From: Candidatus Poribacteria bacterium
Lineage (GTDB): Bacteria > Poribacteria > WGA-4E > WGA-3G
Assembly: GCA_965197475.1 (NCBI GenBank)
Contig: CBDANF010000002.1
Span: forward strand, 576,001-640,000
Length of the DNA stretch: 64,000 nt
Reading direction: 5' to 3'
The notes under the pieces are model-generated. The model was not told where the DNA came from, made no database searches, and worked only from the letters and a program-made list of their open reading frames with translations. Position 1 is the first letter of the stretch; every line of letters begins with the position of its first letter. The position numbers and the translations under genes were made by a program. Of this stretch, positions 12,589-35,882 are shown piece after piece.

Positions 12589-12657
12589 TGTAACATAAAT
12601 TTGTAGCAAAAGTTCCACTATCGTCAACCATATTTTGCATAGAAGGATTTAAAAGTG
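12589..12657 (+). promoter_or_regulatory. Conserved leader element, copy 1
   Basis: Aligns with the reverse complement of 35812-35882; both lie upstream of paralogous cassettes. Confidence 0.75.
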
Positions 12658-12841
12658 TTTTAAAGAGAAAATTTAACTGCTTTCAACTAAGAAACTTCTT
12701 ATCGTCTTTTGTCTTTGCGGGTGCTGCTGTTTTGTGTGGTACTCAAGCGAATGGACGCAACACAGAAGCCACCCGCTTATCCAGACATTGGAGATTATCC
12801 CTGCATATACAACGCAGGAAACCAATAAAGGAGAAACGGAT

Positions 12842-14318
12842 ATGATGGAATTTGTAAAAGACTATTGGAAATCTTCTCTACTCGGTGCGCTTGGGGCACT
12901 CGTGTTACTCTATATCGGACTTTTTATTTACGATGGACTGACCCCGAGCGCAACACAAGAAGTAGTAGATACAGACACCCACAACGCCGCAAAACCACCT
13001 CCATCCGGTGCAAGACTTGCCGCGCGTATCTACCCCTCGAATCAAACGCGTGCGCACCAAGACAAATACCCGCCAAAACCGTGCACTGAAGAACATTGGA
13101 CCTATCCTCCCCATTACATGTGCCATTCCTGCACCACCACCACTCCCAACAGATGTCAAGACGCGCCTTATACAGCTACGGCGGAAAATGGTTATCGCAG
13201 GAACAATGTATGAAATACTGGATGGTGAAAAAGTTGTAACTGAGGCAGCACATAAAAGAAATTTTGAGATACTCGTTGGTGGTATGACTCCAGAGGATGC
13301 TGTCACCTTCCTTGAAACATATCAAATTTATAACCCTCTCATTTTAGACGAATTGGAACCTCGCCGTGCTATTGACTACCTCTATAAAGTAAGGGCGCGT
13401 TGGAAAGACAGAGAAACTTATGCAAGAGGTGTTCTTGCCAGAGCCCCAGACAACCCGGATGCCCAAATGGTGCTGCTGAGTGCTGAACCGGATAACACGA
13501 TAGCGGCTGCAGGATACCGAGATATCGTTAACAGAGATCCTGAGAATCTTCGTGCACTAAACGGTTTAGGATATCGGTTACATTACGATCAACCAGAGGA
13601 AGCGATTGAATACCTAAAGAAAGCGAACAGTCTTGACGCTACACGCGGGTTGTTTAATTTGGGATTGGCGTCCGAACGCCTCGGCGATGTCAAAACCGCA
13701 TGGCTTTACTACAGGAAGCAGCAAACGATACAGAACGGTGACCTCGTTGAACTACATAAACGCGCCATTGAAATGGGCAACCCGTTGTATAAACCGATTT
13801 CGCGCACACCTTCCTCAATATCTGAATCCGATGAAATGCTAATGGACATTGGAGAGATGACACACGAGCAAACGTTCGCACCGGTGGCAGAAGAAACTCC
13901 ATGGCTACCGGAACTTCCATCCCAGGAACGCCACCCATCGGAAAATCAACTGACAGACAAGGATAGCCAAAAAGCCACACGTGCAGAAGCCATACGTGCA
14001 GAATTTCAACGACAGCAAGCCACCGCACAACAGGAGCTTGACGATTTCCTCAAATGGGCAGAAAGCATCATGAATGCGGAAGATACTAATAACCTTGATG
14101 ACTTCCTATCCAAGGAATTCGCGGCACACCTCAACGGCGGTGATGCACAATTTGCCCCGGAACGCACCGTCCGCGCTTATGAAATGATTGAACGATACGG
14201 TCCCGAAAAAGGCTTGCAACGGCTTAAAACAAAGGACCCTGAACTTGCGGAACAGATGGAACGTCTCCTTGAAGCAAAACAACCATCTCGCCGTAATAAC
14301 TCGCAAAACAGAAAATGA
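12842..14318 (+). pseudogene. Membrane-anchored TPR-like protein with a conserved C-terminal helical domain; apparently frameshifted between 13008 and ~13130
   Basis: AAGGAG precedes ATG 12842, which gives a TM helix and KPPPSG. The TPR-like helices and the C-domain (QQELDDFLKW...DPELAEQM) are in another frame. Paralog 33579-34874 has both parts in one ORF. Confidence 0.65.
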
Positions 14319-14377
14319 AGAATGTCCCAGTGTTTTAGATTTAACCATAAACCCATCATTGAAAAAAGGAGATTCAA

Positions 14378-15979
14378 ATGAGATTTACATGTATTTTAAT
14401 CGGCATCTTGTGCCTTCTATGCCTTTTTAACCATGGAAACACCACCCTGGATGCGCAGCAAACAACATCCATCCAGATCGAACAACCATATCTTGACCCA
14501 AATTGGCGGCCAGAGGCGGGCTACTCACTGACTTTTGAGATAAGAGTCACCGTGCCTGCTGATTTCTCCAGTGGGACGCTGATCGCAGTACTCCAGAATG
14601 TGACTAATTATGCCGGTAAAAGTGGAAATGTGGCTGTCCCATCTGACGAAGGCGGCAATCTGGCTGCAGATCTGAAACTACATCAAACGACAGGCTGGTC
14701 GGGGAGCGAGAGTCAGCTCAGCTACACCCTCAGCGGGACAACAGCATCGCATACAGTGTCCCTCCAAGTTAACTGTAAAGATTATGCTGCCTATGGCGAA
14801 TTAAAATTGACAGCATCCGGATCCGGTTATACATCAAACGAGGTCGTTATAAAAATTCCCAAAGATGACAATGGGAATAAAATTGCCGATGGTTGGCAAA
14901 ACGATGTGGACGAGAACGACGAGAACAGAAGCGAAAATTATGACCCGGATGCCGATGCGGATAGTGGTCCCAATTCCAATTCTAATTTTGGTGATGGCAT
15001 CACTGTAATTAACGAATACAGAGGCCTCAATGTCAGCGGCACATGGACAGATACCGACCCAAACGGATGGGATGTCTTTATCCGATCCAAGGTTGGCAGC
15101 GGTGATGCAGGTGCCTTACCCATGACCGTCCATGATATGTCAGAAACGGAAGTATCGTGGATTACCGGGCGGGTCTATCCTTTTGGAATCGGAAGTCAAA
15201 AGGTTTACGCCATTAGACTTGGAGATACCGCAGATGAGAGATCTAGCGAAACAACACTTGGATCTATGAGACAAGGACCTACCCATAGCTACTCAACGGG
15301 GTGGGTAGATGTGGGGCGGATAGAGGAACATGTAGATAATACAGTTGTAAGTGTCAATGAACGCGATTTTTTAGATGGTGCCATTGCACATGAAATCGGG
15401 CACGCGGTTAATCTCTCCCACTGTCCGGATATTGACTGTCCGAACTGTTATATGTGGCGCCAACCTGATTGGCCAATGGCGTATGTAACCCAATTCGCAG
15501 CGCATCATAATTCAGACTACGATTTAACATACGACGGACACATTTATCTGAGTAGCAGTATTCTTACATTCCCTGATAGAGGGTATAGTAGTAATAGAGG
15601 TGTACATATCCGACAAGTTGAAGACGTTAATGGAGACGGTGTTATCAATATTTCGGACCTAACCATAGTTGCGTCAAAGCTGGGTAGTAGTTGGAGCAAC
15701 AACCATCCTACGGATGTTAACAGTGACAGTAGCACCGATATTTCAGATTTGATGCTTGTGGCACAAGAATTAGGCAATACGGCTACCGAATTTCCACATC
15801 TGCCTGAAGACGTTAATGATGACCGTGTTGTCAATATTTTGGATCTACTCGTGGTTAGTTCAAACCTTGGACAGAGCGGAGCACATGCTGCGGATGTTAA
15901 CTGTGACGGAACCGTTGATATTTTAGATTTAGTGCGGGTGGTATCGGCATTTGGGATGACGGTTGCCCCTGAAGAATAG
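14378..15979 (+). CDS. Secreted zinc metalloprotease-like protein with two dockerin-type domains
   Basis: Signal peptide; HEIGHAVNLSHC..DC..CYM metzincin-like motif; four DVNxDxxxxIxDL repeats. Confidence 0.75.
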   Translation: MRFTCILIGILCLLCLFNHGNTTLDAQQTTSIQIEQPYLDPNWRPEAGYSLTFEIRVTVPADFSSGTLIAVLQNVTNYAGKSGNVAVPSDEGGNLAADLKLHQTTGWSGSESQLSYTLSGTTASHTVSLQVNCKDYAAYGELKLTASGSGYTSNEVVIKIPKDDNGNKIADGWQNDVDENDENRSENYDPDADADSGPNSNSNFGDGITVINEYRGLNVSGTWTDTDPNGWDVFIRSKVGSGDAGALPMTVHDMSETEVSWITGRVYPFGIGSQKVYAIRLGDTADERSSETTLGSMRQGPTHSYSTGWVDVGRIEEHVDNTVVSVNERDFLDGAIAHEIGHAVNLSHCPDIDCPNCYMWRQPDWPMAYVTQFAAHHNSDYDLTYDGHIYLSSSILTFPDRGYSSNRGVHIRQVEDVNGDGVINISDLTIVASKLGSSWSNNHPTDVNSDSSTDISDLMLVAQELGNTATEFPHLPEDVNDDRVVNILDLLVVSSNLGQSGAHAADVNCDGTVDILDLVRVVSAFGMTVAPEE

Positions 15980-16006
15980 CACGTTTGATGCAAGGAGAAA
16001 CTGACA

Positions 16007-18121
16007 ATGAAGACTAAATTCCTTTTGATTTTAACCATTTTGTTTGCGGCACTTACATTTACTCCGAACATTTTTCCGCAAGATTCACCGCAATGGCAGC
16101 TACCCGAAGGTGCGAAAATGCGTTTCGGTAAAGGTAGGATATATGAGATAGCATACTCTCCAGATGGCACGCGTTTGGCGGTGGCAAGCTCCATCGGAGT
16201 TTGGCTCTACGATGCGGAGACTGGTGAGGAGCTTGACCTACTCACAGGGCATACAGGTAGAGTTATTAGTGTCGTATTTAGTCCGGATGGAAAAACAATC
16301 GCAAGTGGGAGTACGGACAGAACTATTCGTCTGTGGAATGTGGACACAGGACAACACATCCGCACGCTTACCGGGCATGGAGGGACGGTCCAGAGCGTAG
16401 CGTTCAGTCCGGACGGGAAAAAAATCGCAAGTGGCAGTAGGGATCATACCCTCCGTCTGTGGGATGCGGACACAGGCACACTCCTCCATAAATTAATAGG
16501 ACACCAGGGTGGAGGTGGTCGAGGCGATGTTTTAGCAACTTATGCCTATCTTAGCGTTGCGTTCAGTCCGGATGGGAAGACACTTGCAGGCGGTAATCAA
16601 ACAAGTTTTATCAACCTGTGGGATGTGGATACAGGCATGCTCCTCCGCACGCTCATAAGGAATTATGATCATGGTGATGTCCTTAGCGTGGTATTCAGTC
16701 CGGATGGCAATAAAATCGCAAGCGGCGGTAGCGACGGCACTATCCGTCTGTGGGATGCGGACACAGGCACACCTCTCTACAGGCTCAGCGGGATTACAGA
16801 GCATTTTGCTTTTGTTAGTAGCGTCGTTTTCAGTCCGGATGGAAAAACACTTGCAAGTAGCAGTAGCCACCTCGGTACTATCCATCTGTGGGATGCGGAC
16901 ACAGGCACACCTCTTCGTATACTCACGGGGCATGCGGAGAGTACTTATAGCGTAGTGTTCAGTCCGGATGGCAATAAAATCGCAAGTAGTGGGAGGGACA
17001 GCACTAGTGACAGCACTATCCGTTTGTGGGATGCCCACACAGGACAACCCATCCGCAAACTCGCTGAGCATTTGTTTTTATCCTCTAACGTTGAGTTTAG
17101 TCCGGATGGGGAAATAATCGCAAGCGGCAGCAACAAAGGTACTATCTATCTGTGGGATACTGACACAGGTAAGCTTCTTCGTCTCCTCACGGGACATGAT
17201 CGTCGGGTCCATAGCGTAGCGTTCAGCCCAGATAACAAAACAATCGCAAGTAGCAGTACGGACAGCACTATTCGTCTGTGGAATGCGGACACAGGCACAC
17301 ACATCCGCACAATCAGAGAGTATGGCGGTAGCGTCGTGTTCAGTCCGGATGGAAAAACAATTGTCAGTGGCAGGAATTACCGCACTATTCATCTGTGGGA
17401 TGCGGACACAGGCACACTCCTCCGCACAATCACATGGGATGCAGTTCGAGGCTTTTATAATGTGGTCCTTAGTCCGGATGGAAAAACAATCGCAAGTGGC
17501 AGTTGGGACGGACCTATCTATCTGTTGGATGCGGACACAGGCACACTCCTCCGCACAATCACAGTGCCTCTAAGTGCTGGCAGTACGCTCGCGTTTAGCC
17601 CGGATGGGAAAAAGCTCGTAAGTGACGGTGGTCGCAACCGCACTATACATCTTTGGGATGTGGACACAGGTACACTTCTCCAAACACTTACATGGAGTGG
17701 AGGTGCTGTCTTTAGCATCGCTTTCAGTCCGGATGGCAAGACAATCGCAAGTGGCAGTAGCGACCATACCATCCGTTTGTGGGATGCCCAAACAGGAGGA
17801 GAACCCCGCCGCGCACTTATAGGGCATACGTATTTTGTTACTAGCGTCGCTTTCAGTCCGGATAGCAAGACAATCGCAAGTGGCAGTAGCGATGGGACTG
17901 TGTTACTATGGGATATTGCACCATCACAACTGTCCGAAGATATTAATGGGGACGGTGTTGTGAATATTCAAGATTTAGTTGCTGTGGCACAGGCTTTTGG
18001 CGAAGCGGAACCCGATCTCAACGACGATGGTGTTGTGAATATTCAGGACTTGATCATTGTGGCATCGGCATTTGGGAATACGGTTGCTGCCCCTAAAGAC
18101 TCTGAAAACTCTGAAGAATAG
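16007..18121 (+). CDS. Secreted WD40-repeat protein (~14 repeats) with C-terminal dockerin, copy A
   Basis: Signal peptide; repeated SVAFSPDG..IASG....IRLWD; two D(I/L)NxDGVVNIQDL repeats. Confidence 0.93.
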   Translation: MKTKFLLILTILFAALTFTPNIFPQDSPQWQLPEGAKMRFGKGRIYEIAYSPDGTRLAVASSIGVWLYDAETGEELDLLTGHTGRVISVVFSPDGKTIASGSTDRTIRLWNVDTGQHIRTLTGHGGTVQSVAFSPDGKKIASGSRDHTLRLWDADTGTLLHKLIGHQGGGGRGDVLATYAYLSVAFSPDGKTLAGGNQTSFINLWDVDTGMLLRTLIRNYDHGDVLSVVFSPDGNKIASGGSDGTIRLWDADTGTPLYRLSGITEHFAFVSSVVFSPDGKTLASSSSHLGTIHLWDADTGTPLRILTGHAESTYSVVFSPDGNKIASSGRDSTSDSTIRLWDAHTGQPIRKLAEHLFLSSNVEFSPDGEIIASGSNKGTIYLWDTDTGKLLRLLTGHDRRVHSVAFSPDNKTIASSSTDSTIRLWNADTGTHIRTIREYGGSVVFSPDGKTIVSGRNYRTIHLWDADTGTLLRTITWDAVRGFYNVVLSPDGKTIASGSWDGPIYLLDADTGTLLRTITVPLSAGSTLAFSPDGKKLVSDGGRNRTIHLWDVDTGTLLQTLTWSGGAVFSIAFSPDGKTIASGSSDHTIRLWDAQTGGEPRRALIGHTYFVTSVAFSPDSKTIASGSSDGTVLLWDIAPSQLSEDINGDGVVNIQDLVAVAQAFGEAEPDLNDDGVVNIQDLIIVASAFGNTVAAPKDSENSEE

Positions 18122-18303
18122 CACGTTTGATTTACCCGAATGGTAGGACGGTTTTCCGCTAAATGCCAGATGCACATTTGGCGTTGATTCATTGTTCCGT
18201 ATCGTTCGCTAAGCCTTTCGTTGCACGAGAGCGGATGGAAAACGCGGAGCGTGCCTGCTACCATGTTCAAATCAATCTGCAAGGAAGTATAAGGAGACAC
18301 ACA

Positions 18304-19524
18304 ATGAAAAACAAGGTTTTTTTGATGTTGACACTATCCATTCTCGTTTTACCCCTCAACTCTCATAGCGACTTTCCTCCGGGGACCATATTTCCTAAGG
18401 ATGTACCGGGGGAGTACCCTGAACCTGTCGAAATACACATTGACGGTGCTGTAGATTACTTACAATATTCACTGGATGGCAAACTATTGGCAGTAGTGGC
18501 TTACCCTGGTTCTGGTCTACACCTCTACAATACACAAACTCTTGAAGAAATCTATCAGATCAAAGCAGAAGAAGGTTTTAATGGGGACTGTATAGCGTTT
18601 AGTCCGGATGGAAAAGTCCTCGCAAGTGGTGGACATCGGGGTAATATCAAGTTGTGGAATGTAGTGACAGGAACACACAAGCAGACGCTAAAAGCCCATT
18701 CAAGGGGTGTATACAGCGTAGCGTTCAGTCCGGATGGACAAACACTCGCAAGTGGCGGGGTAGAGGGATATGTCATCTCAGATGGTGAAAAATTGACTAC
18801 TGGGGCAATCTATTTATGGGATGCAAACACGGGACAACTTCTTCATCGCCTCACGGAGCATAAACGGGGTGTCGCCAGTGTAGCGTTCAGTCCGGATGGC
18901 ATCACACTCGCAAGTGGGAGTTGGGACAACACCGTCCGTCTGTGGGATATAGCAACAGGTACAAACACACAAACTTATATAACAAAGCATCGTAACATAT
19001 TGGGGGTATCGTTCAGTCCGGATGGAAAAATACTCGCAAGTTGGGGGTTGTGGGACAGTATCTATTTATGGGATGCAAGCACGGGTAGTCTTCTTCACAC
19101 GCTTATACGTAGGACAAGTGATACGGATGCCCTTTTTAGCGTTGCCTTCAACTCATATGGTAATACACTCGCCACTGCAAGCGGAGAAGGGGTCCGTATA
19201 TGGGATGTGAATACGGGTAGTTATCTTCACAACATGCCGGAATCTATGAATATACCTCCACGTAGCGTGGCATTCAGTCCAGATGGGCGGACACTCGCAA
19301 GTGGGATGTGGGGCAGCACTGTACGTTTGTGGAATATTGCACCATCACAACTGCCCGAAGATGTTAATGCGGACGGTGTTGTCAATATTCAAGATTTAGT
19401 TGCTGTGGCACAGGCTTTTGGCGAAGCAGAACCGGATTTTAACGGCGATGGTGTTGTTAATATTCAGGACTTGATCATTGTGGCATCGGCATTTGGGAGT
19501 ACGGTTTCTGCCACTGAAGAATAG
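18304..19524 (+). CDS. Secreted WD40-repeat protein (~7 repeats) with C-terminal dockerin
   Basis: AAGGAG precedes ATG 18304 (MKNKVF...); signal peptide; WD40 repeats; dockerin. Confidence 0.9.
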   Translation: MKNKVFLMLTLSILVLPLNSHSDFPPGTIFPKDVPGEYPEPVEIHIDGAVDYLQYSLDGKLLAVVAYPGSGLHLYNTQTLEEIYQIKAEEGFNGDCIAFSPDGKVLASGGHRGNIKLWNVVTGTHKQTLKAHSRGVYSVAFSPDGQTLASGGVEGYVISDGEKLTTGAIYLWDANTGQLLHRLTEHKRGVASVAFSPDGITLASGSWDNTVRLWDIATGTNTQTYITKHRNILGVSFSPDGKILASWGLWDSIYLWDASTGSLLHTLIRRTSDTDALFSVAFNSYGNTLATASGEGVRIWDVNTGSYLHNMPESMNIPPRSVAFSPDGRTLASGMWGSTVRLWNIAPSQLPEDVNADGVVNIQDLVAVAQAFGEAEPDFNGDGVVNIQDLIIVASAFGSTVSATEE

Positions 19525-19630: not shown

Positions 19631-19678
19631 CTTTGTCCTGGGTTTGTAATGATTTCCATAAAAAGGAGATATTGGACA

Positions 19679-21778
19679 ATGAAGACTAAATTCCTTTTGA
19701 TTTTAACCATTTTGTTTGCGGCACTTACATTTACTCCGAACATTTTTCCGCAAGATTCACCGCAATGGCATCTACCCGAAGGTGCGAAAATGCGTTTCGG
19801 TAAAGGTAGGATATATGAGATAGCATACTCTCCAGATGGCACGCGTTTGGCGGTGGCAAGCTCCATCGGAGTTTGGCTCTACGATGCGGAGACTGGTGAG
19901 GAGCTTGACCTACTCACAGGGCATACAGGTAGAGTTATTAGTGTCGTATTTAGTCCGGATGGAAAAACAATCGCAAGTGGGAGTACGGACAGAACTATTC
20001 GTCTGTGGAATGTGGACACAGGACAACACATCCGCACGCTTACCGGGCATGGAGGGACGGTCCAGAGCGTAGCGTTCAGTCCGGATGGGAAAAAAATCGC
20101 AAGTGGCAGTAGTGATCATACCCTCCGTCTGTGGGATGCGGACACAGGCACACTCCTCCATAAATTAATAGGACACCAGGGTGGAGGTGGTCGCGGCGAT
20201 GTTTTAGCAACTTATGCCTATCTTAGCGTTGCGTTCAGTCCGGATGGGAAGACACTTGCAGGCGGTAATCAAACAAGTTTTATCAACCTGTGGGATGTGG
20301 ATACAGGCATGCTCCTCCGCACGCTCATAAGGAATTATGATCATGGTGATGTCCTTAGCGTGGTATTCAGTCCGGATGGGAAAAAAATCGCAAGCGGCGG
20401 TAGCGACGGCACTATCCGTCTGTGGGATGCGGACACAGGCACACCTCTCTACAGGCTCAGCGGGATTACAGAGCATTTTGCTTCTGTTCATAGCGTCGTT
20501 TTCAGTCCGGATGGAAAAACACTTGCAAGTAGCAGTAGCCACCTCGGTACTATCCATCTGTGGGATGCGGACACAGGCACACCTCTTCGTATACTCACGG
20601 GGCATGCGGAGGGTGCTTATAGCGTAGTGTTCAGTCCGGATGGCAATAAAATCGCAAGTAGTGGGAATGACAGGACTAGTGACAGCACTATCCGTTTGTG
20701 GGATGCCCACACAGGACAACCCATCCGCAAACTCGCTGAGCATTTGTTTTTATCCTCTAACGTTGAGTTTAGTCCGGATGGGGAAATAATCGCAAGCGGC
20801 AGCAACAAAGGTACTATCTATCTGTGGGATACTGACACAGGTAAGCTTCTTCGTCTCCTCACGGGACATGATCGTCGGGTCCATAGCGTAGCGTTCAGCC
20901 CAGATAACAAAACAATCGCAAGTGGCAGTGCGGACAGCACTATCTGTCTATGGAATGCGGACACAGGCACACACATCCGCACAATCAGAGAGTATGGCAA
21001 TAGCGTCGTGTTCAGTCCGGATGGAAAAACAATTGTCAGTGGCAGGAATTACCGCACTATTCATCTGTGGGATACGGACACAGGCACACTCCTCCGCACA
21101 ATCACATGGGATGCAGTTCGTGGCTTTCTTATTAGTATGGACCTTAGTCCGGATGGAAAAACAATCGCAAATAGCAGTTGGGACGGACCTATCTATCTGT
21201 TGGATGCGGACACAGGCACACTCCTCCGCACAATCACAGTGCCTATAAGTGCTGGCATTCCGCTCGCGTTTAGCCCGGATGGGAAAAAGCTCGTAAGTGA
21301 CGGTGGTCGCAGCCGCACTATACATCTTTGGGATGTGGACACAGGTACACTTCTCCAAACACTCACAGGGAGTGGAGGTGGTGTCTTTAGCATCGCTTTC
21401 AGTCCGGATGGCAAGACAATCGCAAGTGGCAGTAGCGACCATACCATCCGTTTGTGGGATGCCCAAACAGGAGGAGAACCCCGCCGCGCACTTATAGGGC
21501 ATACGTATTTTGTTACTAGCATCGCTTTCAGTCCGGATAGCAAGACAATCGCAAGTGGCAGTAGGGATGGGACTGTGTTACTATGGGATATTGCACCATC
21601 ACAACTGTCCGAAGATATTAATGGGGACGGTGTTGTGAATATTCAAGATTTAGTTGCTGTCGCGAATGCTTTTGGGGAAGCAGAACCGGATCTCAACGAC
21701 GATGGTGTTGTTAATATTCAGGACTTGATCATTGTGGCATCGGCATTTGGGAATACGGTTTCTGCCACTGAAGAATAG
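19679..21778 (+). CDS. Secreted WD40-repeat protein with dockerin, copy B (near-identical to 16007-18121)
   Basis: Long identical nucleotide stretches shared with copy A; AAGGAG precedes ATG 19679. Confidence 0.93.
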   Translation: MKTKFLLILTILFAALTFTPNIFPQDSPQWHLPEGAKMRFGKGRIYEIAYSPDGTRLAVASSIGVWLYDAETGEELDLLTGHTGRVISVVFSPDGKTIASGSTDRTIRLWNVDTGQHIRTLTGHGGTVQSVAFSPDGKKIASGSSDHTLRLWDADTGTLLHKLIGHQGGGGRGDVLATYAYLSVAFSPDGKTLAGGNQTSFINLWDVDTGMLLRTLIRNYDHGDVLSVVFSPDGKKIASGGSDGTIRLWDADTGTPLYRLSGITEHFASVHSVVFSPDGKTLASSSSHLGTIHLWDADTGTPLRILTGHAEGAYSVVFSPDGNKIASSGNDRTSDSTIRLWDAHTGQPIRKLAEHLFLSSNVEFSPDGEIIASGSNKGTIYLWDTDTGKLLRLLTGHDRRVHSVAFSPDNKTIASGSADSTICLWNADTGTHIRTIREYGNSVVFSPDGKTIVSGRNYRTIHLWDTDTGTLLRTITWDAVRGFLISMDLSPDGKTIANSSWDGPIYLLDADTGTLLRTITVPISAGIPLAFSPDGKKLVSDGGRSRTIHLWDVDTGTLLQTLTGSGGGVFSIAFSPDGKTIASGSSDHTIRLWDAQTGGEPRRALIGHTYFVTSIAFSPDSKTIASGSRDGTVLLWDIAPSQLSEDINGDGVVNIQDLVAVANAFGEAEPDLNDDGVVNIQDLIIVASAFGNTVSATEE

Positions 21779-27533: not shown

Positions 27534-29492
27534 CTATCTGTTATTTTTATTTTCTTCTCCCCTTGTCAATTCCATCATAGAAGGCACAAAAACGCGATCG
27601 CCTTCTTTTAAGCCGCTAATAATTTCAAAGTGTGTGTTGTTACGCCTGCCAACTTTAATATGCGTTTTGACACCTTTCTCCTCACCTTTTTTAGGTGGTT
27701 CACCTGTGTCCAGTTTAACAAAATGCTGACGCTCACTTCTAATTTCCGCTTCTATACCGGATAATCGTTTGTTTTCAGAGATTACGATAGCGATTTCTGT
27801 CGGACCAGGACGCATACCCTTCGGGGGTTCGTCAAACAAAATTTCAAGATTTCGGCGGGTTTCCGAAGGGGCAATTTTTGTAACTTGTCCAGGAAACTGT
27901 TTGCCAATAAGGTTTTGAACTTTTATTTTTTGTCCTTGCTGAAACTGCCCAAGATCGTTTGAATTTACTGTGGCTTTTACAGTAAACACCTCTGGGCTTA
28001 ACACCGCTGCTATCGGAATCTGAAGGATATCAGGTTTTTCAAAAACGATAATGTCTACGTCTGCTGACATTCCGGGTAATAATTGAAATTCTTGATCTGA
28101 TATATCTACCTCTATATCAACCTCAAAGGTAATCACAGCATTTCCGCCACCTTGTGGACGTTGCGTGGAACTGGGTGAAATTTCGCTGACTCTACCATTA
28201 AAAATTTTATGGCGATAACTATCAACCCGTATTTCTACGCGTTGTCCCTCTTTTATTCTGCCGATCTCAACCTGATTGATTTGGGTTTTGACAATCATCT
28301 GTGAAAGGTCGGCGATCCGCATGATCGCCTCGCCACGTGAAAATGCAGACCTTCCTGAGGTGATAATCTCACCTTCTTCTACAGAAAGGCGTGTAATGGT
28401 GCCGGACATTGATGCCTTAACCGTTGTCCATTCGTAGCGTTCCTGCTGAGATTTGAGGCGGCTTTCTGCTTGAAATAAATTCGCTTGTGCGCTAACTTTC
28501 GCATGTTTTGTGAGTGCTTTCTCTTCCTCGGTTGTTTCTTCAGCTTGTTTGAGTCGGGTGCGTGCGTTTTCCAAATCCGCTATTTGCTGCTTTTCCTGTG
28601 CATCTTGAGATTCTTTAACCGTTTGAACGTTCTTTTTATTAAGGGCAAGGGTTGCTTCTCGACTCTGAATAGCTTCCTTCATTGCCTTGATGTTTTCTTC
28701 TTGTGATTTAATCGTTTCCTTTTGGGATTCAACCTCTTTCTGGGCAGTTTCGTATTGCGAGGTATTCAAAGCGAGTTGTCTTTGGGATTGCTCCAATGTC
28801 TGCTTCGAAATTAATTCTTTTTCAAATAATTCTTCGTTGCGTTTGTGTTCAGATTGAGTTGTTTCAAAGGTAATTTTTGCGGATTCAACACTTGCTTTCG
28901 CTCGATCAAGTGTTAAATTTGCTTGCGTTAAAGCGATTTCAGCCTGCTTCATTGAGATTTTATCTCGGTTCAGCAAGTTCTGCGTTGTTGCAACGAGAGT
29001 TTCCGCTTCAGTAATCCGTTGTTGCTTGTTTGCAGCAAAGGATTGAAGGTATGCTTCAGACTTAGCAACAGCATTTTGTGCCTGATGTAGGTCGCTTTTT
29101 TCCCGTTTTTCAGCGATCTGAATTCGGAGCTCTGCTTGTTCAAATTCTGCGTTCCGAGCATCTCGGTTTGCTTCTGCCTGTTTCTTTTCCTCAAGAATCT
29201 GCTCGTCGTCGATTCTGAGCAACGGATCGTCCTCTTTAACAAGGTCTCCCTCTTCAACGAGAATTTCCTTTATTTCGCCCTCAACGTTTGATCGGACATC
29301 TACCTCAATAAAGGAACGGAGGGTGCCAGATTCTTGAACTTTTACGAGAAATTCCCCGCGGCGTACAACCTCACGTTTGTCTTCGTCCTCATCCTTTTTT
29401 TGACCAAAATTGATTTGGGTTGCGCCTATCACCGCTACAGCAACAACAATAGCAGCTGTGCCGATAATAATCCATTTTTTACCGATCTTCAT
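27534..29492 (-). CDS. Efflux periplasmic adaptor (MacA/HlyD-like) with an extended coiled coil
   Basis: N-terminal TM, lipoyl-like halves (VEEGDLVK; MSGTITRLSVEEGE), long coiled coil, LLPGMSADV and EIISGLKEGD. Confidence 0.88.
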   Translation of the reverse strand: MKIGKKWIIIGTAAIVVAVAVIGATQINFGQKKDEDEDKREVVRRGEFLVKVQESGTLRSFIEVDVRSNVEGEIKEILVEEGDLVKEDDPLLRIDDEQILEEKKQAEANRDARNAEFEQAELRIQIAEKREKSDLHQAQNAVAKSEAYLQSFAANKQQRITEAETLVATTQNLLNRDKISMKQAEIALTQANLTLDRAKASVESAKITFETTQSEHKRNEELFEKELISKQTLEQSQRQLALNTSQYETAQKEVESQKETIKSQEENIKAMKEAIQSREATLALNKKNVQTVKESQDAQEKQQIADLENARTRLKQAEETTEEEKALTKHAKVSAQANLFQAESRLKSQQERYEWTTVKASMSGTITRLSVEEGEIITSGRSAFSRGEAIMRIADLSQMIVKTQINQVEIGRIKEGQRVEIRVDSYRHKIFNGRVSEISPSSTQRPQGGGNAVITFEVDIEVDISDQEFQLLPGMSADVDIIVFEKPDILQIPIAAVLSPEVFTVKATVNSNDLGQFQQGQKIKVQNLIGKQFPGQVTKIAPSETRRNLEILFDEPPKGMRPGPTEIAIVISENKRLSGIEAEIRSERQHFVKLDTGEPPKKGEEKGVKTHIKVGRRNNTHFEIISGLKEGDRVFVPSMMELTRGEENKNNR

Positions 29493-29494
29493 GA

Positions 29495-30835
29495 CTACTG
29501 TAAGACTCCCATTGCATCTTGTAATCGTGCGCGCGCAATTATGTAATCGTAAAATGCGTTGACTTGATTTGTCAATGCTTGCGCGTAGCTTGTTTGCGAA
29601 TCAAGTACCTCAAGTAGAATCGCTTTTCCTACCTTATAGCGTCCCTGAATGACATCTAAACTCAGCTGTGCGTTTACGACCTGTGTATTAGAGATTTCTA
29701 CTGCGGTTTCGCTTCGTTTTAGGTTTAGATAACTTTGTCGTACGTCAAGCGCAACGGAGCGTTCAAGGTCGCTTGCATTTTCGCGTGCTTGTTCTAACTG
29801 CATATTAAGTTCCTTGACGCGATTCCCCAAAACGCCGCCATCAAAAAGTGTAAAGTTAAGTGATGCGCCAACACTCCAACTCCGAAAATCAGAGAAAATT
29901 TGACGTTCGCGAAGATAATTATCAAGGTCTACGTTATAGTTTGCGTCTGCGCTCAATCGGGGCCAACGTTGCAATTTTGAAAGCGTCAGACTCCATTCCT
30001 GTTGTTTAATTTGTGCTTCAGTTTCCTTGAATTCTGGTCGGTTTTCAAGGGCTAACTGCATCGCTTCTTCAACAGTAATCTCTATCTTCTCAATAGTCCC
30101 ACGCTCCAGATATAATTGGAAGGATTCATCAACTGCGACGGTAATTAACAATCCAGGGTCCAATCCCATGAGTCGTGGTAAAGTTGCTTGTGAAATTTGT
30201 AGCGAAATTTGATTATTTAGCATCCCTAGTTCACTATTTGCTTCACGGACTCTCGCTGTAGCGACATCCGCAGGGATAAGGACACCTGCTTCTTTCAAAG
30301 CGATGGTTTGTGCTGTGTTTTCTTTTGAGCGCGCCAACACATCTTCACTAACCTTAACCAGTTCTGTGTCTTTAAGGACATCGTAATAGGCTTGTGTAAT
30401 CTGTAGGATTACACCTTGTTTAATGCCTTCATTTCGGTTAGTGGTAGCCTTCAATCCCTCTTTTGCTTGTGCGTAATTTGCTTCACGTTGTCCATTATCC
30501 CAAAGCGTATAACGTCCTGTCAATCCTAAATCGTAATTCTGTGGTTCAAATCCGAAATCCAGTCGATCATTAAAATCGTATCGTCCAGTGGAGGAAATTG
30601 TTGGAAAATAACCGGCACGTGCATTCTTCAATCGTAGTTCCTGAATAGCAAGACTCAACCGTGCATTTCGCATAGTCGTTGCTTTCTCTAACCCCAGCTG
30701 GATACACTGTTCAAGCGTTAGCGGTTGCGACAGGTCAATTTCTTGTGGTTCTTGTGCGCTCACACAGAGAATTACCCAAACCTGAAAACCCGTCAGGATA
30801 AGAGTTAACGCAATTTTCCATCGAAGCATTAGCAT
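29495..30835 (-). CDS. TolC-family outer-membrane protein
   Basis: Signal peptide, LTLEQCI, YFPTIS, AYYDVL, ALENRPE and WPRLS; adjacent to the adaptor gene. Confidence 0.9.
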   Translation of the reverse strand: MLMLRWKIALTLILTGFQVWVILCVSAQEPQEIDLSQPLTLEQCIQLGLEKATTMRNARLSLAIQELRLKNARAGYFPTISSTGRYDFNDRLDFGFEPQNYDLGLTGRYTLWDNGQREANYAQAKEGLKATTNRNEGIKQGVILQITQAYYDVLKDTELVKVSEDVLARSKENTAQTIALKEAGVLIPADVATARVREANSELGMLNNQISLQISQATLPRLMGLDPGLLITVAVDESFQLYLERGTIEKIEITVEEAMQLALENRPEFKETEAQIKQQEWSLTLSKLQRWPRLSADANYNVDLDNYLRERQIFSDFRSWSVGASLNFTLFDGGVLGNRVKELNMQLEQARENASDLERSVALDVRQSYLNLKRSETAVEISNTQVVNAQLSLDVIQGRYKVGKAILLEVLDSQTSYAQALTNQVNAFYDYIIARARLQDAMGVLQ

Positions 30836-30854
30836 CTCCTTAAACCTAAAACTT

Positions 30855-31302: not shown

Positions 31303-31311
31303 CATTTGTTT

Positions 31312-31404: not shown

Positions 31405-31555
31405 GACACTCAACATAAGTACTGAACTTGTAGCGAGTAAGAGCTAAGAATTCAAAGTAAATAGGGTGTCTGAAGTAGAAAGAATGGGGCATAAAGTCCA
31501 CCCTTCTCTTTCCCTATTTTAACACATCCTTATGTTTCACTCAATATGACTTCAC

Positions 31556-33565
31556 TTAATAACTGTGGATATGAGAAGGTCCATAAGATGGTACATTTGG
31601 ATGTACACACCGCCAGAACAGATACGTGCATCGATCACCGTTGGCGTTGGTATTCGTGCATTGCTCCTCTTGGTGCGTCAGACTATCGCAGGCGTAAATA
31701 GTATGGGAAGGACAGTTCCCTGTCGAGATGTGATTGCTTGACTGACACGCGTAGAATGAATGGGAGGTGCAATACAGAGACCAACTGTTGGCGGCTACCA
31801 ACTGATGGTCTGTGCCATTACACTTATATTGATAACATTGACCGCAATACGCGTGCAGGGCAGCCGATGCCGCATCGTTCGGATCATACGGTGTCGTCAG
31901 CGTACACCCCTGAATATCACACGTTACCAGTGTCGGTGAAGGCGTGGGTGTCGTCACGGGTGTGGTTGTCTGTGTGGTCTGTTCTGTGTCTATTCCGAGC
32001 ATTTCAAGCGTGATTTCTCCGAATGAAATGCCCGAGTAATTGCATGCAGTCACACCCGCATTCGTGTGCCCTGTTATCGCTAAAGTTTTCTTGTGTAAAC
32101 TGTCTAACGATAGCGACTTTACCTTAGAACCCGGGATTTTTATCACAAGGTTACCCGTATCCGGATCAATTTGATAATGCTTACTGGTTCCGCTTGGGTT
32201 TTTCATGAAACACGTTAGGTGAGTACAGTGGCGGTTGATGTTGTGATCATGCAAGACTTCGTGTGCGATCGTGTTATTGATCCGAAATTTTTTGCCGGCA
32301 TCTATCTTGGCCTGTGTTCCCAATTTCCACTTATAATTTTTCGCCCTATTCTCATAAGCTGTCCTCTCTCCGGGAGTTTTAGCTTTTTCAGCATATTTTA
32401 AATATTGTGCCTTACCCTGCGCATCGTATGCGTTCTTCGCCTTTACGTACGCCTCGTCAACTTTACGCTCTATACTATCAACAAAAACCTTTATTTTTGT
32501 GTATCGCGATGGAGAACCGCCCGATGTCTGTCCGAATCGGTTGCGTGGGTTGTCATCTTGTTTACCGCGTGTGATTCGTATTGCCCAGACAGGGTTGGCA
32601 CCAGGGAAATCTGAGTTGAAGTTTACCCTGCCCGTGTCTTCACTAACACTCTCTGCGAGTAAATTACCGTTAAAGACTTCCCCCCACGGTTCGTTAACAA
32701 TAGACCAACCACTGTTTTCAATTTCAAAAGGTGTCAGCTTGTAATATAGATGCTTATTGATCGATGGGGTGTTACCAAGCTCATAGTCTTCCATACTACT
32801 ATCGGAGCAATACATGACATCTTTTTGTGTGGGGTCAAGTCGTGTGACCGCTGCGTCGGTGCTTTTGGTGAAAATGCCGCGGTATTCATCGTATATAATC
32901 CACCCGTCACCAATGTTCTTGTTCTTGTCGTCGGGGGCAACTTCATCGTCAAGTGTCGGGTCATAGCCGTTTTTACCATTGGCGAGAGGGGTGTTTTGGT
33001 TTATATCAAATTTCGATTCATCTACGTTACCATTTTCGTCCATAAGTTTCGGCCAGTTATCTGCAATCCCGTTCTCATTTTCATCAAACGGGATACACTT
33101 TGTATCCGTCATTGCCATGCCACCGTCCCTTGGTGTCACCGTGACAGTGACGCTGCCAGAAGCAGCCCAGTCATAACAACGGCTTGTGATCGTGGCAGGG
33201 ACGTTCTGAGAGTTGGCATCGGTCCCATATACATAGCTGAGTTGGGATTCCCCAACATAAGTCCACCCATCATTGTCGTCCGGGTGAAACTTTAGGTCAT
33301 TTTCAGTTGTCACGCCAAAATTTGCAGCGTACCCTTTATAGTTCGTTGGATCAAGATCAACAACAATATCGTAGTATTTATTTCCTGCCAAACCATCTAC
33401 CTGCAGCGAAAATGAAAACGTGTTGTAATGGTCTTCATTTTGGGGGTGTCCCCCTTCGGGATATTTATCGCCATCAAAGTTTTGCGTCAGTGTGACAGTA
33501 ACCGCATGAGCCGACAGTGCAATAGACAATAGAAGTGTCAGTGTGAAAAAAGTCAAACGTCTCAT
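31556..33565 (-). CDS. Secreted zinc metalloprotease-like protein with a Thr/Pro linker and Cys/His-rich tail; paralog of 14378-15979
   Basis: AAGGAG precedes ATG 33565; signal peptide; HEVLHDHNINRHC....CFM. Shares NY.G..., ESQLSY, IP.D.N.N.IAD.W and GDG.....EYRG motifs with the paralog. Confidence 0.75.
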   Translation of the reverse strand: MRRLTFFTLTLLLSIALSAHAVTVTLTQNFDGDKYPEGGHPQNEDHYNTFSFSLQVDGLAGNKYYDIVVDLDPTNYKGYAANFGVTTENDLKFHPDDNDGWTYVGESQLSYVYGTDANSQNVPATITSRCYDWAASGSVTVTVTPRDGGMAMTDTKCIPFDENENGIADNWPKLMDENGNVDESKFDINQNTPLANGKNGYDPTLDDEVAPDDKNKNIGDGWIIYDEYRGIFTKSTDAAVTRLDPTQKDVMYCSDSSMEDYELGNTPSINKHLYYKLTPFEIENSGWSIVNEPWGEVFNGNLLAESVSEDTGRVNFNSDFPGANPVWAIRITRGKQDDNPRNRFGQTSGGSPSRYTKIKVFVDSIERKVDEAYVKAKNAYDAQGKAQYLKYAEKAKTPGERTAYENRAKNYKWKLGTQAKIDAGKKFRINNTIAHEVLHDHNINRHCTHLTCFMKNPSGTSKHYQIDPDTGNLVIKIPGSKVKSLSLDSLHKKTLAITGHTNAGVTACNYSGISFGEITLEMLGIDTEQTTQTTTPVTTPTPSPTLVTCDIQGCTLTTPYDPNDAASAALHAYCGQCYQYKCNGTDHQLVAANSWSLYCTSHSFYACQSSNHISTGNCPSHTIYACDSLTHQEEQCTNTNANGDRCTYLFWRCVHPNVPSYGPSHIHSY

Positions 33566-33578
33566 CAGTATATCTCCT

Positions 33579-34874
33579 TTATTTAGTGGTGCGTCGTGGA
33601 CGCTGTGAGCGTTGTTTCGACATCGCTTTCGCGAGGTCCGGGTCAATCTTTTGTAGATGCGGGATCGCATCTGTCTTGCCATGGCGCTGCATCGTTTCAA
33701 ACGCACGGATCAACCGATCCGAACTAAAATCGGGACTTTCGCCACGTAGCTGCTTTGCCATCTCACGCATCAAAAAATCTTCTAAATCCGCAGGAGATTT
33801 GGCATTCTCTATCGTTTCCATCCATTGTAGAAAATCTTCAAACTCCTGCTGTTGGCGTTGCACAAAGGCATCGCGCATTTGCTGCGCAGCAACAGCACGC
33901 GGTGCATCGGCAGCAGGAGAACCACCCGGAGCAGATACAGTGTCAACAGGCATAGCCTGCGGATCAAACGCACCATCTACATCCGCATCAGGCGATGTAT
34001 CAACAGGAAAATCGGGTAAGAGCGGTAAATTAAAAGGATCCGATAACGACTCGTCAAACGCCTCCACTTCAGACGGAGGACCATATACCGGAAAACCTCT
34101 TTCAATGGCTTCAATATGGGCAACGATTGTGTCATCGTTTTCCCAGTATCTACCGGGGTTCGCGTTTACCAGGGTTTGTGCCGCTTTGAGATGCACAAGT
34201 GCAGAGTCGTAATCACCGACCCTTTGATATGCCATCCCTAAATTCGTATGAATTTCTTCAGGTTCCGTCCAAAGACCATACCAGGAATTCGATGCATACA
34301 AATCAACGTATTTGAGGGCTTCTTTCGCGTAGACGATAGATTCTTCCGGGGAGTCTGCCTGTGTCAACTGTGCTAAATCTTGAAGCAGACGGGGAGAATC
34401 CGGATGGTATTTCAGCATCTCTTTATACTGGGGCAGTTCATTCCGGCTGCCCCAAGGAATACGTTTATTATTTTTGTCATACTTTGTAAAGTCATATCTC
34501 GCCTCAAGTGCTAATTCGGAATACGGATATGCTTCTATAAGACGCAAGTTGGCTTTACGTCTATCCTCTGGAGGGCCATGCATTATTTTCCTTTCGAGGT
34601 CTGCGTAGGTCCACATTTCACCGTCTACGGAGACGGCTTCCGGTTCGGGGGGCACCGTGCGATGCCACTCGTCACCATGCCAGTGACCTGTCGCATACGT
34701 TTCGCCGTCGGGCGGGGGTTTGAGAACCACTTTTTTGACATCTTGTGTCGCAATATCTGGCACTTTGTAGATTTTAATCGGTTCGGTGTCTCTATCCCGT
34801 ATTAACAAAACTGCGATAACACCGATGAGTCCGATGATGAGGGAACAAAACCCCCATATCATTTTTTTAGACAT
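33579..34874 (-). CDS. Membrane-anchored TPR-like protein with a conserved C-terminal helical domain
   Basis: N-terminal TM, KPPP...GHWHGDEWH, TPR-like NLGMAYQRVGDYDSA, and C-domain QQEFEDFLQW...DPDLAKAM. Confidence 0.8.
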   Translation of the reverse strand: MSKKMIWGFCSLIIGLIGVIAVLLIRDRDTEPIKIYKVPDIATQDVKKVVLKPPPDGETYATGHWHGDEWHRTVPPEPEAVSVDGEMWTYADLERKIMHGPPEDRRKANLRLIEAYPYSELALEARYDFTKYDKNNKRIPWGSRNELPQYKEMLKYHPDSPRLLQDLAQLTQADSPEESIVYAKEALKYVDLYASNSWYGLWTEPEEIHTNLGMAYQRVGDYDSALVHLKAAQTLVNANPGRYWENDDTIVAHIEAIERGFPVYGPPSEVEAFDESLSDPFNLPLLPDFPVDTSPDADVDGAFDPQAMPVDTVSAPGGSPAADAPRAVAAQQMRDAFVQRQQQEFEDFLQWMETIENAKSPADLEDFLMREMAKQLRGESPDFSSDRLIRAFETMQRHGKTDAIPHLQKIDPDLAKAMSKQRSQRPRRTTK

Positions 34875-34906
34875 GTCAGTTCTCCTTATTATAGAGCGTT
34901 AGCCTG

Positions 34907-35368
34907 TTATTTCGCTGCGTCCAGCGAGCAGGGCGGTATGGTTGATTTTGGACAAGGCGTTTCCTGTTTTTCCAATATGATACTGTCAGATCGGGGTTGT
35001 TCTGTGCAGTCAAGTTTATCCATCTGTGTTGCGCGTGTCATTTTAATAGCACCGGACAGAATAACCCCGCTAATCAAAACGAGAACCACTGCAGTGATGA
35101 GTCTCCGCCTGTTTTTCCGGTGTTGTAGTTTGTGGAAAACAGACGAGGTTTTTTCAACCTGTTGTGTATCAAGTTGTTTTAAGGACAAGAATCCCCACAG
35201 CGAGATAGCGAGTGCAACGATACTGAGGCGGATTCCGTGATCCTCAAAAAAGAGTGCAAAGAACGAGATAACGATGAGTCCGCCAAATGCAGCCATAGCT
35301 GCCAAATTAACGTTTGCTGTAAAAAATTTCTTTTTCACAATTATATCTCCTCTGTTAAAATTTTTCAA
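34907..35368 (-). CDS. Hypothetical membrane protein (3 TM)
   Basis: Three hydrophobic segments; lies directly upstream of the cassette. The start is uncertain. Confidence 0.55.
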   Translation of the reverse strand: MKNFNRGDIIVKKKFFTANVNLAAMAAFGGLIVISFFALFFEDHGIRLSIVALAISLWGFLSLKQLDTQQVEKTSSVFHKLQHRKNRRRLITAVVLVLISGVILSGAIKMTRATQMDKLDCTEQPRSDSIILEKQETPCPKSTIPPCSLDAAK

Positions 35369-35430
35369 GTAAAATCAGACAAATATTCAAACGCGATTCA
35401 GCATAAATAGCGTCTATTTCCATAAACAAC

Positions 35431-35561
35431 CAGGACTTACGCAATGTATTCAAAAGTCCCACTGATAAGGGGATTTAGGGGGTTAAATCACTGAAATAAC
35501 GACTTTTTAACCCCCCTAACCCCCCTAACCCCCCTTATCAAGGGGGAATGCGTAAGTCCTG
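35431..35561. mobile_element. MITE family A, copy 2
   Basis: TIR caggacttacgca / tgcgtaagtcctg; 6-bp TSD aacaac. Confidence 0.8.
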
Positions 35562-35643
35562 AACAACAAAAGCCCGCGACGAGACACTCCGTATGAAATG
35601 AAGTGCGGGCGCGAAGATATCGCAGCTGCTAACGTCTGCGATA
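35562..35643 (-). terminator. Two hairpins, the second a terminator-like GC stem with a U-tract, in the cassette leader
   Basis: On the minus strand: tatcgcag / ctgcgata, then gcccgc...gcgggc followed by ttttgttgtt. Confidence 0.55.
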
Positions 35644-35670
35644 AGACTTTGTCCAATAAATTGATTGAAA

Positions 35671-35814
35671 TTAACGAATGTGAAGTGGGGGGGGTATTAA
35701 CTTATAGTTAAAATTCGCCAACCGACGTATGCCGCGTGGACGAATCCTGCTCAGGTGGCAGATGTCCGATGTGGTCACTTTCTGGATTGTGGTATAAATA
35801 TGTCGGTCCTTCAT
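35671..35814 (-). CDS. Putative 47-aa leader peptide ending IPPPLHIR
   Basis: AGGGGA precedes the ATG at the end of the conserved leader; open for 47 codons; includes a C8 tract. Confidence 0.4.
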   Translation of the reverse strand: MKDRHIYTTIQKVTTSDICHLSRIRPRGIRRLANFNYKLIPPPLHIR

Positions 35815-35882
35815 TGTTAAATCCCCTAATGCAAAATATGGTTAACGACGGTGTAACTTCCTCACTACAAATTTGTGTTACA
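35812..35882 (-). promoter_or_regulatory. Conserved leader element, copy 2
   Basis: The reverse complement aligns with 12589-12657. Confidence 0.75.

Follow-up and report, generated by a model that had tools for sequence, protein, structure and literature searches.

Membrane-bound chaperones of the type II secretion system (T2SS) are described, in the available portion of PMC4713064, as proteins with an N-terminal transmembrane (TM) domain whose gene lies next to that of the cognate effector and whose deletion abolishes secretion, with LipB for lipase and CpaB for the metallopeptidase CpaA as examples. According to the part of PMC7542363 that is available, the periplasmic domain of CpaB binds CpaA in a 1:1 ratio and the C-terminal tail of CpaB blocks the catalytic site. 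For archaemetzincins, the consensus HEXXHXXGXXHCX4CXMX17CXXC is given in the available text of PMC3427221. Here we analyse a 64,000-nucleotide (nt) stretch of DNA from a Candidatus Poribacteria bacterium (hereafter the window; assembly GCA_965197475.1, contig CBDANF010000002.1, positions 576,001-640,000 of the forward strand; GTDB lineage Bacteria; Poribacteria; WGA-4E; WGA-3G), which carries three unequal copies of a cassette with genes for a predicted secreted zinc protease and an anchored tetratricopeptide repeat (TPR) partner. By analogy with the systems above, we propose that these are copies of a Poribacteria-specific operon that joins a Sec-exported, metzincin-like zinc protease to a membrane-anchored periplasmic TPR protein, likely its dedicated chaperone and possibly the keeper of its latency, and we assign this reading a probability of about 0.5.

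The Poribacteria pair resembles CpaA and CpaB in several respects. A secreted zinc protease of metzincin type is encoded beside a protein with one N-terminal membrane helix and a periplasmic bulk, the two genes share one operon with a short gap (13 and 59 nt in copies 2 and 1, respectively, against 22 bp for cpaAB in Table 1 of PMC4713064, in its available portion), and the genome contains a T2SS, of which the E and F genes were seen. The differences concern gene order, fold and copy number: the partner gene comes first here, whereas cpaB lies downstream of cpaA; the partner fold, a β-hairpin module, a TPR domain and a tethered four-helix domain, is unrelated to CpaB (SRPBCC) and Lif; and the pair exists in multiple copies (15 protease loci), has protease tails of several kinds and comes with a leader switch. 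The partner shares the first two features of membrane-bound T2SS chaperones, the anchor and the adjacency to an effector, and a dependence of secretion on it would be an analogy. As that class is functional and not homologous, missing homology to Lif or SRPBCC proteins does not exclude that the partner works like its members. We found no description of this cassette in the openly accessible literature, and PMC3909097 contains no mention of dockerin, cohesin, peptidase or protease. Even so, an initial annotation, made from the sequence alone, overstated the case in calling it a candidate undescribed system: membrane-anchored, effector-adjacent T2SS chaperones, including CpaB with its metzincin CpaA, are in print (PMC4713064 and PMC7542363, available portions). 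It is better understood as a novel, TPR-based form of the familiar pairing of an effector with a membrane-anchored chaperone, set in a lineage-specific superfamily and behind a switch-like leader.

Three unequal copies of the cassette

Poribacteria are dominant, uncultivated symbionts of sponges, and the genome that holds the window comprises 5.7 Mb in three contigs. Coordinates without a prefix are window positions, C2 and C3 denote contigs of this genome (G000), and L numbers denote fetched loci. The open reading frame listing and its translations reveal that copy 2 is complete, copy 1 is broken and copy 3 lacks its 5′ end. Copy 2 (31556-35991, minus strand) consists, in order, of a leader of ~430 nt (35562..35991), delimited with ten aligned copies; a gene for a small membrane protein of 153 residues (34907..35368); the intact partner 2 of 431 residues (33579..34874), with a TM helix (residues 3-26), the hairpin motif PPDGETYATGHWHGDEWH, a TPR domain, a disordered linker and a four-helix C-terminal domain (C-domain); and protease 2 (31556..33565), in which a signal peptide and the same N-terminal modules as in protease 1 are followed by HEVLHDHNINRHC-x4-C-x-M and a Cys/His-rich tail. 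The start of protease 2 is most likely the ATG at 33565 (MRRLTFF...), 13 nt past the partner stop, and not the GTG at 33706. Copy 1, on the plus strand, has only a leader remnant (12589..12740), no small membrane gene, a broken partner and protease 1 (14378..15979), which comprises a signal peptide, a β-sandwich, TSP3-like repeats, a metzincin-like catalytic domain (HEIGHAVNLSHC..C.M) and two dockerins. Partner 1 and partner 2 share 29% identity (E 3e-29), and the two proteases 28% over their N-terminal half (E 2e-15), a sequence likeness far beyond chance. The initial annotation had seen one arrangement at 12589-15979 (+) and 31556-35882 (-); homologous pairs of partner and protease are present at both places, but the two arrangements differ, as copy 1 is without the full leader, the small gene and an intact anchor. 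The repeated leader that it noted is confirmed by direct reading and by an alignment with 80% identity over 66 nt between 12589-12652 and 35882..35817.

The break in partner 1 can be traced at the DNA level. Three-frame translation and alignment with paralog DNA place its TM helix and KPPP segment in an N-terminal piece (12842..13213, plus strand) that is out of frame with the body (13188..14318, plus strand), which contains the TPR region, a low-complexity linker and the C-terminal helical domain and is readable from an internal ATG, without an anchor. The anchor is out of frame because of a 35-nt deletion at about 13013, which also takes out the GGHWHGDEWH motif. The same deletion is present in a 90%-identical twin of partner 1 at C2:1092902. 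By contrast, the 35 nt are kept in three paralogs, namely the full-length genes at C3:989704 and C3:2799846, which read through in a single frame, and an orphan fragment at C3:3932093, whereas in a fourth paralog gene, at C3:3719520, 39 nt are deleted in frame at this position and the motif is gone with them. The domain series proposed earlier for the partner (TM helix, KPPP segment, TPR, linker and C-domain) is accordingly intact in copy 2, and its first two elements are out of frame in copy 1.

Partner 3 (63524..64000, plus strand) runs off the end of the window. The third partner gene announced at 63524 is thus present, but it starts at an internal Met and has no TM part. An IS1595-family transposase gene (62424..63353, minus strand; Pfam DDE_Tnp_IS1595, E 1.5e-34) lies directly upstream, and on another contig the missing anchor fragment, the orphan at C3:3932093, has the same IS1595 element behind it. 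The displaced fragment and element point to a rearrangement mediated by the insertion sequence (IS), in which IS1595 cut off the anchor of partner 3. A second IS1595-family transposase gene is located in the window at 47693-48652. Copies 1 and 3 appear to be decayed or rewired versions of the cassette, copy 1 having lost both the leader switch and the anchor, and copy 3 the anchor.

Partner and protease genes travel together

Sequence searches returned 58 partner relatives and about 40 full-length protease relatives, together with further protease matches that were dockerin-only; all three named sources of these relatives are Candidatus Poribacteria. Hidden Markov models built from the alignments were run on a six-frame translation of the window's genome, where they identified 15 catalytic-domain loci, 11 of which follow immediately after a C-domain partner gene in the same orientation. 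Partner genes with the C-domain number about 21, some in tandem, some orphaned and some before a truncated protease. One unpaired protease (C3:3704484, to 3705893, plus strand) and its partner (C3:3718048, to 3719598, minus strand) lie ~12 kb apart in inverted orientation, and the same 50-residue reading (MFIFKSVIRMLSHAIKVKENGHSKNAF...) occurs at both junctions, a layout consistent with an inversion between the two genes. Several copies contain frameshifts or splits, such as the split proteases at C3:2801416 and C3:3092286.

We extended the comparison to 61 genomes of the phylum (the window's genome and 60 others), counting protease-domain matches with a profile start <=200 and comparing the coordinates of both searches by eye. 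The partner profile matched in 32 of the 61 genomes, including 23 of the 24 in the window's genus, and protease-domain matches occurred in 17, the window's among them. The 60 other genomes hold 36 protease-domain loci: a partner match lies immediately upstream in the same orientation at 19 of them and is missing there at 16, and the last one sits at a contig edge. At the strongest protease loci of these genomes (E<=1e-50), a partner is upstream in 12 of 13 cases, and the unpaired loci are mostly weak or part-profile matches, several of which are embedded in far longer proteins. We fetched 12 loci from 11 other genomes, and each has TPR-Cdom and then pN-pTSP-pCat on one strand (with a weak C-domain match, E 1e-4, in L024); the leader matches in three of them (L017, L025 and L027) and the small membrane gene is found in two (L017 and L025). 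Over 22 pairs, partner and protease identities are correlated (Mantel r 0.81, with 0 of 2000 permutations as high). By this correlation, partner and protease genes move and diverge together, which is no proof of binding, and the adjacency counts sustain the suggestion in the initial annotation of a dedicated partner.

The partner is a predicted periplasmic TPR protein

The AlphaFold2 model of partner 2 (predicted local distance difference test (pLDDT) 80.2) begins with the TM helix (3-26) and a disordered spacer. Two β-hairpins (63-89), formed by the motif PPxGETxxTGHWxGDxW, pack on TPR helices (90-258; pLDDT >90), and a disordered acidic and proline-rich linker (270-319) leads to four helices (320-423) that form the end domain. 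A single N-terminal TM helix is also present in 45 aligned partner relatives; copy 1 has lost it by the frameshift and copy 3 by the IS. Since the cytoplasmic part comprises only about 2-5 residues, an anti-sigma or signalling role was rejected. We likewise rejected metal binding by GHWHGDEWH, because the conserved residues of this segment are G, E, T, G, W, G and W, and not the His residues.

The partner profile matches the consensus TPR with E 2.8e-32, single-sequence Pfam TPR matches of the partners are below the cut-off, and Foldseek gave a CTPR match for the partner 2 model (E 4.9e-4). Its closest folds are three-TPR chaperone modules, led by a type III secretion system (T3SS) chaperone complex (3wxx; Z 12.0, root-mean-square deviation (rmsd) 3.5, 137 aligned residues) and including Sti1 TPR2AB (Z 11.6) and IpgC (Z 10.9); the listed matches span residues 78-261 only and are all TPR proteins. 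Like the TPR secretion chaperones (IpgC and AcrH of T3SS class II, and Hop/Sti1), the partner would have a three-TPR module of ~140 residues (Z 10.9-12.0), but T3SS class II chaperones and Hop/Sti1 are cytoplasmic and soluble, and the likeness may be generic to TPR folds. An Atlas search with the C-domain (residues 325-431) yielded no usable match.

This architecture also bears on whether the partner could mainly be a periplasmic inhibitor or immunity protein, which guards the envelope of the producer and is not needed for folding or export, in the manner of Inh and AprI, which protect serralysin producers. The known metzincin inhibitors of the periplasm are small soluble β-proteins, unlike the anchored, helical repeat protein of 430 residues found here, and anchored relatives of its N-terminal module (N-module) precede secreted cargo that is not a protease. 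An inhibitor would nonetheless fit the adjacent, co-diverging pairs and the topology, the periplasm being the one compartment where the partner could encounter the secreted protease, and even CpaB, a chaperone, obstructs the CpaA active site (PMC7542363, available portion). On balance, we consider a purely protective partner unlikely and retain the chaperone as the preferred reading.

The protease belongs to a metzincin-like family

The protease is composed of a signal peptide, a β-sandwich, two repeats that we take to be TSP3-like calcium-binding repeats (no Pfam match on protease 1), a small catalytic domain and a variable tail. In 22 aligned family members, H338, E339, H342, H348, C349 and C357 are invariant, and M359 (in C-x-M), H376 and H377 are at least 90% conserved. 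The Gly position of HExxHxxGxxH is occupied by N, S, H or R, with the zinc ligands kept, and the spacing from HC to the next Cys is x4 in protease 2 and x7 in most members. The family has no conserved CxxC; a conserved HHxxD lies at the equivalent place, 16 residues after the Met in protease 1, and a site of two Cys plus His/Asp may replace the four-Cys site of archaemetzincins.

An AlphaFold2 model of protease residues 20-400 (pLDDT 69.5) has a confident β-sandwich and a fair catalytic part, with the HExxH helix at model residues 309-324. In VIA-align against 48,161 chains, all matches listed for the catalytic part (model ~195/210-367) are metzincins: ADAM10 (Z 7.8, rmsd 3.6, 131 aligned), proMMP-2 (Z 7.8), MMP-9 (Z 7.6), the archaemetzincin AmzA (2x7m; Z 7.4, rmsd 4.3, 136 aligned) and EcxA (Z 7.3, rmsd 2.7, 96 aligned, 22% identity). 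Scores of Z 7-8 are middling, yet the matches agree with one another on a metzincin fold in the model. Language-model (Atlas) neighbours of the protease belong to EcxA-, reprolysin- and M66-type clusters (score about 0.9), and Foldseek on the same model returned matches to the N-terminal β-sandwich only (among them pilins, a CLIPPER domain and reeler).

The initial annotation had assigned the motif to the archaemetzincin type. HExxH...HC...C.M is indeed closest to the motif of archaemetzincins (M54, PF07998), with HExxH, a Cys directly after the third His, a further Cys and x-Met, exactly as HC-x4-C-x-M in protease 2, and the small catalytic domain and the AmzA match add to this likeness. However, the archaemetzincin profiles score below their cut-offs on protease 1 (Pfam, 16.5 against 24.4 bits; NCBIfam, 18.8 against 145 bits) and match only 19 residues around the motif, and neither PF07998 nor NF033823 matches protease 2. 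A sequence search of the PDB gave a motif-level match to 2x7m only (E 0.02). The Gly is replaced, the spacing is mostly x7 and HHxxD stands in place of CxxC; furthermore, the Poribacteria protease is secreted and multidomain, whereas archaemetzincins are small and cytoplasmic. We thus rejected archaemetzincin identity, on the sub-cut-off profiles and the missing CxxC, and, because the zinc motif and the consistent metzincin fold matches go together with sub-cut-off archaemetzincin profiles, we file the protease as a putative new metzincin-like family with an archaemetzincin-like motif.

Protease tails vary and may dock at the surface

The tail of protease 1 matches the type I dockerin (PF00404, Dockerin_1; E 5.7e-18, 65.3 bits against a cut-off of 22.9) in two stretches, and protease 2 ends in a Cys/His-rich tail, both as initially annotated; the latter tail has no Pfam match and no dockerin. 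Among the 40 closest protease homologs, 23 have dockerins and 17 have none. Tail types in the alignment include dockerin pairs, repeated Cys-rich modules (…CGHRWCCCA), repeated β-type modules and the Cys/His-rich tail of protease 2, a portion of which is also seen in cargo genes that are otherwise unrelated (with 30% identity at C3:582183 as well as C3:589115, and 62% at C3:2716621). With its conserved N-terminal and catalytic parts and its varying C-termini, the group conforms to the polymorphic exoprotease family that the initial annotation had proposed.

Three genes for WD40 propeller proteins that each terminate in a dockerin (16007-18121, 18163-19524 and 19649-21778, plus strand; Pfam) follow protease 1, and tblastn dockerin matches place dockerin-type genes of this kind downstream of several sister copies as well. 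The window's genome has 20 cohesin matches above the Pfam cut-off. Given the dockerin tails, the dockerin-ended WD40 neighbours and these cohesin matches, docking of the dockerin-bearing members at the surface is plausible. The arrangement recalls the cellulosome in the type I dockerin pairs on protease 1 and its WD40 neighbours and in the 20 cohesin matches, but differs from it in that the cargo consists of protease and propellers rather than glycoside hydrolases, the bearer is a Gram-negative-type sponge symbiont and dockerins are found in only 23 of the 40 closest homologs.

A leader and a small membrane gene head the cassette

Ten aligned leader copies share one order. An AT-rich, promoter-like start is followed by a hairpin and a Shine-Dalgarno sequence, then by an upstream open reading frame (uORF) that passes through a poly-C run (8-14 C), and lastly by two conserved hairpins, of which the second precedes a U-run; the last 87 nt have a folding energy of -29 to -39 kcal/mol. 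Of the 10 copies, 7 have a uORF of 47-49 residues with the end PPP(P)LH(I/V)R and a stop codon 95-104 nt ahead of the terminator arm; the uORF of a copy with C13 encodes 92 residues and reads through the terminator. The leader of copy 2 has a uORF of 47 residues (35814..35671) that passes through C8 and ends in PPPLHIR, and a terminator hairpin at about 35615..35562. The remnant in copy 1 keeps the 5′ hairpin, the Shine-Dalgarno region and a trace of the 3′ arm of the terminator, and contains no uORF, no poly-C run, no 5′ arm and no terminator-like site. In another genome, a relative carries the identical uORF end together with C16. At the amino-acid level, the end FNYKL(I/T)PPPP(P)LHIR-stop is kept between genomes (35671-35814 compared with L027:60-186), and the first half varies. 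Besides frame switching at the C-run, a poly-proline arrest peptide in the uORF is conceivable. Rfam gave no match at gathering thresholds in the window, and two chance-level miRNA matches in 34800-36100.

A MITE-like repeat of ~130 nt (35431..35561, minus strand), with about 100 matches genome-wide, is inserted between the leader terminator and the small gene and is not present in cassettes elsewhere. It also occurs partly in tandem arrays (for example, C3:2691-2692 kb), and pieces of it are found in sponge metatranscriptome contigs. The small membrane protein has three hydrophobic helices and a Cys-bearing tail and matches no Pfam or NCBIfam family. The last 207 nt of its gene (34915-35121) are 93-97% identical at four other loci (C2:365925-366131, C3:1159794-1160000, C3:3670106-3670319 and C3:3672017-3672230), whereas the partners directly downstream share only about 35% protein identity; this sharp boundary of homology at the head of the cassette suggests gene conversion or recombination. 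In one sponge metatranscriptome run, two low-depth contigs (34759-34971 and 34985-35142) match without differences and cover only the junction of the small gene and partner 2; as DNA carry-over is possible, the run is thin evidence of transcription.

Partner ends recur with other cargo

The C-domain profile is found in 258 cluster representatives, always at the C terminus. In a weaker group, only the last ~45 residues match (FSPERxxRAxxxLNRYGPEEGLRRLKESDPExA), and these proteins are anchored but have another middle part. A scan for this motif in one genome per species (185,579 species) returned 77 loci, of which 75 are titled Poribacteria and 2 'uncultured bacterium'. The C-domain that the initial annotation singled out is therefore conserved, but it is not specific to the protease, as its last ~45 residues end many other anchored Poribacteria proteins. 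The N-module, a TM helix with PPPGETxxTGHWxGDxWH, similarly heads other anchored proteins of 255-310 residues that are paired with other secreted proteins, and the leader and small membrane gene precede further anchored-plus-secreted pairs without a Pfam match. Because the N-module, C-terminal motif, leader and small gene recur with other cargo, the protease cassette is one branch of a wider anchor-plus-cargo pattern, in which the conserved partner ends are probably generic and the middle part is likely the cargo-specific piece.

Two loci in the window's genome illustrate the pattern. A minus-strand array at C3:1752000-1770500 consists of 5-6 tandem pairs, each an N-module protein (255-310 residues) followed by a secreted protein of 430-526 residues that ends in ..LLMQRGICSGERLTTLRDYHSDLYR, and is headed by a 215-residue open reading frame that looks sigma-factor-like by eye. 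At L002:3831-4340 (C3:582930-583439), two anchored-plus-cargo units flank the gene of an anchored protein of 169 residues, which matches T2SS protein C weakly (PF11356, E 9.6e-5, below the cut-off).

Such recurrence raises the alternative that the partner is a generic envelope adaptor, coupling whatever cargo is encoded beside it to a sorting, export or surface-assembly machine shared by Poribacteria, with only the TPR middle specific to the cargo. The N-module proteins paired with unrelated secreted proteins in the array, the leader and small gene before other pairs, and a ~45-residue C-terminal motif present in 258 cluster representatives, with a protease downstream at 0 of 77 loci, speak for such an adaptor. 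We nevertheless hold it to be unlikely, since no candidate for the shared machine was found, the small membrane protein matches no family and the adaptor overlaps with a chaperone rather than excluding it. More speculatively still in scope, and to be taken as a doubtful extension, a Poribacteria-wide secretion module could exist, in which a shared anchor (the hairpin N-module and a C-terminal docking bundle) would hand varied cargo to one envelope machine, an attenuator formed by the poly-C/poly-proline uORF would switch operons, and phase-variable, plug-in surface enzymes, in this case proteases mounted on cohesin-dockerin scaffolds, would work the sponge matrix.

Export route and neighbouring genes

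T2SS E and F genes lie 3-6 kb upstream of copy 1. This is the only E/F locus in the genome and it is near just 1 of the 15 protease loci; its adjacency to copy 1 is thus incidental, T2SS linkage was rejected as a conserved feature, and export by an adjacent T2SS, as first suggested, is not supported as stated. TolC-like and HlyD-like genes downstream of copy 2 were likewise rejected as part of the cassette, as they are near no other protease locus. In the same region, an EcoRI-type adenine methyltransferase gene (E 8.8e-128) adjoins one for a GmrSD_N/HNH endonuclease (23861-25908, minus strand); this pair is located between the HlyD/TolC-like genes (27534-30835) and an ABC ATPase gene (22877-23557), as if inserted into an efflux or export operon.

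A model for partner action and the evidence against it

In the model that we favour, the protease would pass the inner membrane by Sec. The partner, anchored there through its N-terminal helix, would capture the protease on the periplasmic side, maintain it in a folding-competent and perhaps inactive state, and later hand it over to an outer-membrane export route, possibly the single T2SS of the genome. The tail would then place the enzyme, with dockerins plugging into cohesin scaffolds on the cell surface. The leader, through the passage of its uORF across the poly-C run and then through its terminator, would decide if transcription of a complete cassette, such as copy 2, takes place at all. 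We infer the chaperone function itself from architecture, linkage and precedent, at even odds.

Several observations weigh against this model. Neither in sequence nor in fold does the partner resemble Lif or CpaB (SRPBCC), Pfam and NCBIfam scans of it gave TPR families only, and fold matches of TPR proteins at Z<13 may reflect only the common helical arrangement. The last ~45 residues are the most conserved part of the partner, yet they end many other anchored Poribacteria proteins, and a protease is downstream at 0 of the 77 motif loci (L066 has one upstream); as the motif ends so many anchored proteins without a protease behind, the C-domain probably meets something common and not the protease. 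About 10 C-domain genes in the window's genome have no intact protease behind them, and no partner is adjacent at 4 of 15 protease loci here and 16 of 36 in other genomes. On the protease side, the Met-turn region of the model has a pLDDT <40, and the N-terminal β-sandwich, with its invariant C133 and D135, could be the latency domain itself.

A lack of any functional coupling, with two lineage-specific neighbours co-copied by segmental duplication in a repeat-rich, decaying symbiont genome, is very improbable: although copies are broken (the frameshifted partner 1 and its twin, the split proteases, the IS-cut copy 3 and the inversion at C3:3704-3719 kb) and kin share neighbours by descent, the gene order is kept between subfamilies of 28-29% identity and across at least three genera, far longer than expected of neutral linkage.

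Implications for Poribacteria

To our knowledge, how Poribacteria act on host tissue is largely unknown. The locus defines secreted, metzincin-like proteases with interchangeable targeting tails as a lineage-specific family, and links the pair of protease and partner to a switch-like leader. The partner represents a new structural type of effector-adjacent anchored protein, which would extend the small class of T2SS chaperones (Lif and CpaB) to a TPR form. With 15 protease and about 21 partner genes in one genome, specificity between cognate and non-cognate pairs is directly testable. If the partner is indeed needed for folding, it would be a practical key to the laboratory expression of these proteases.

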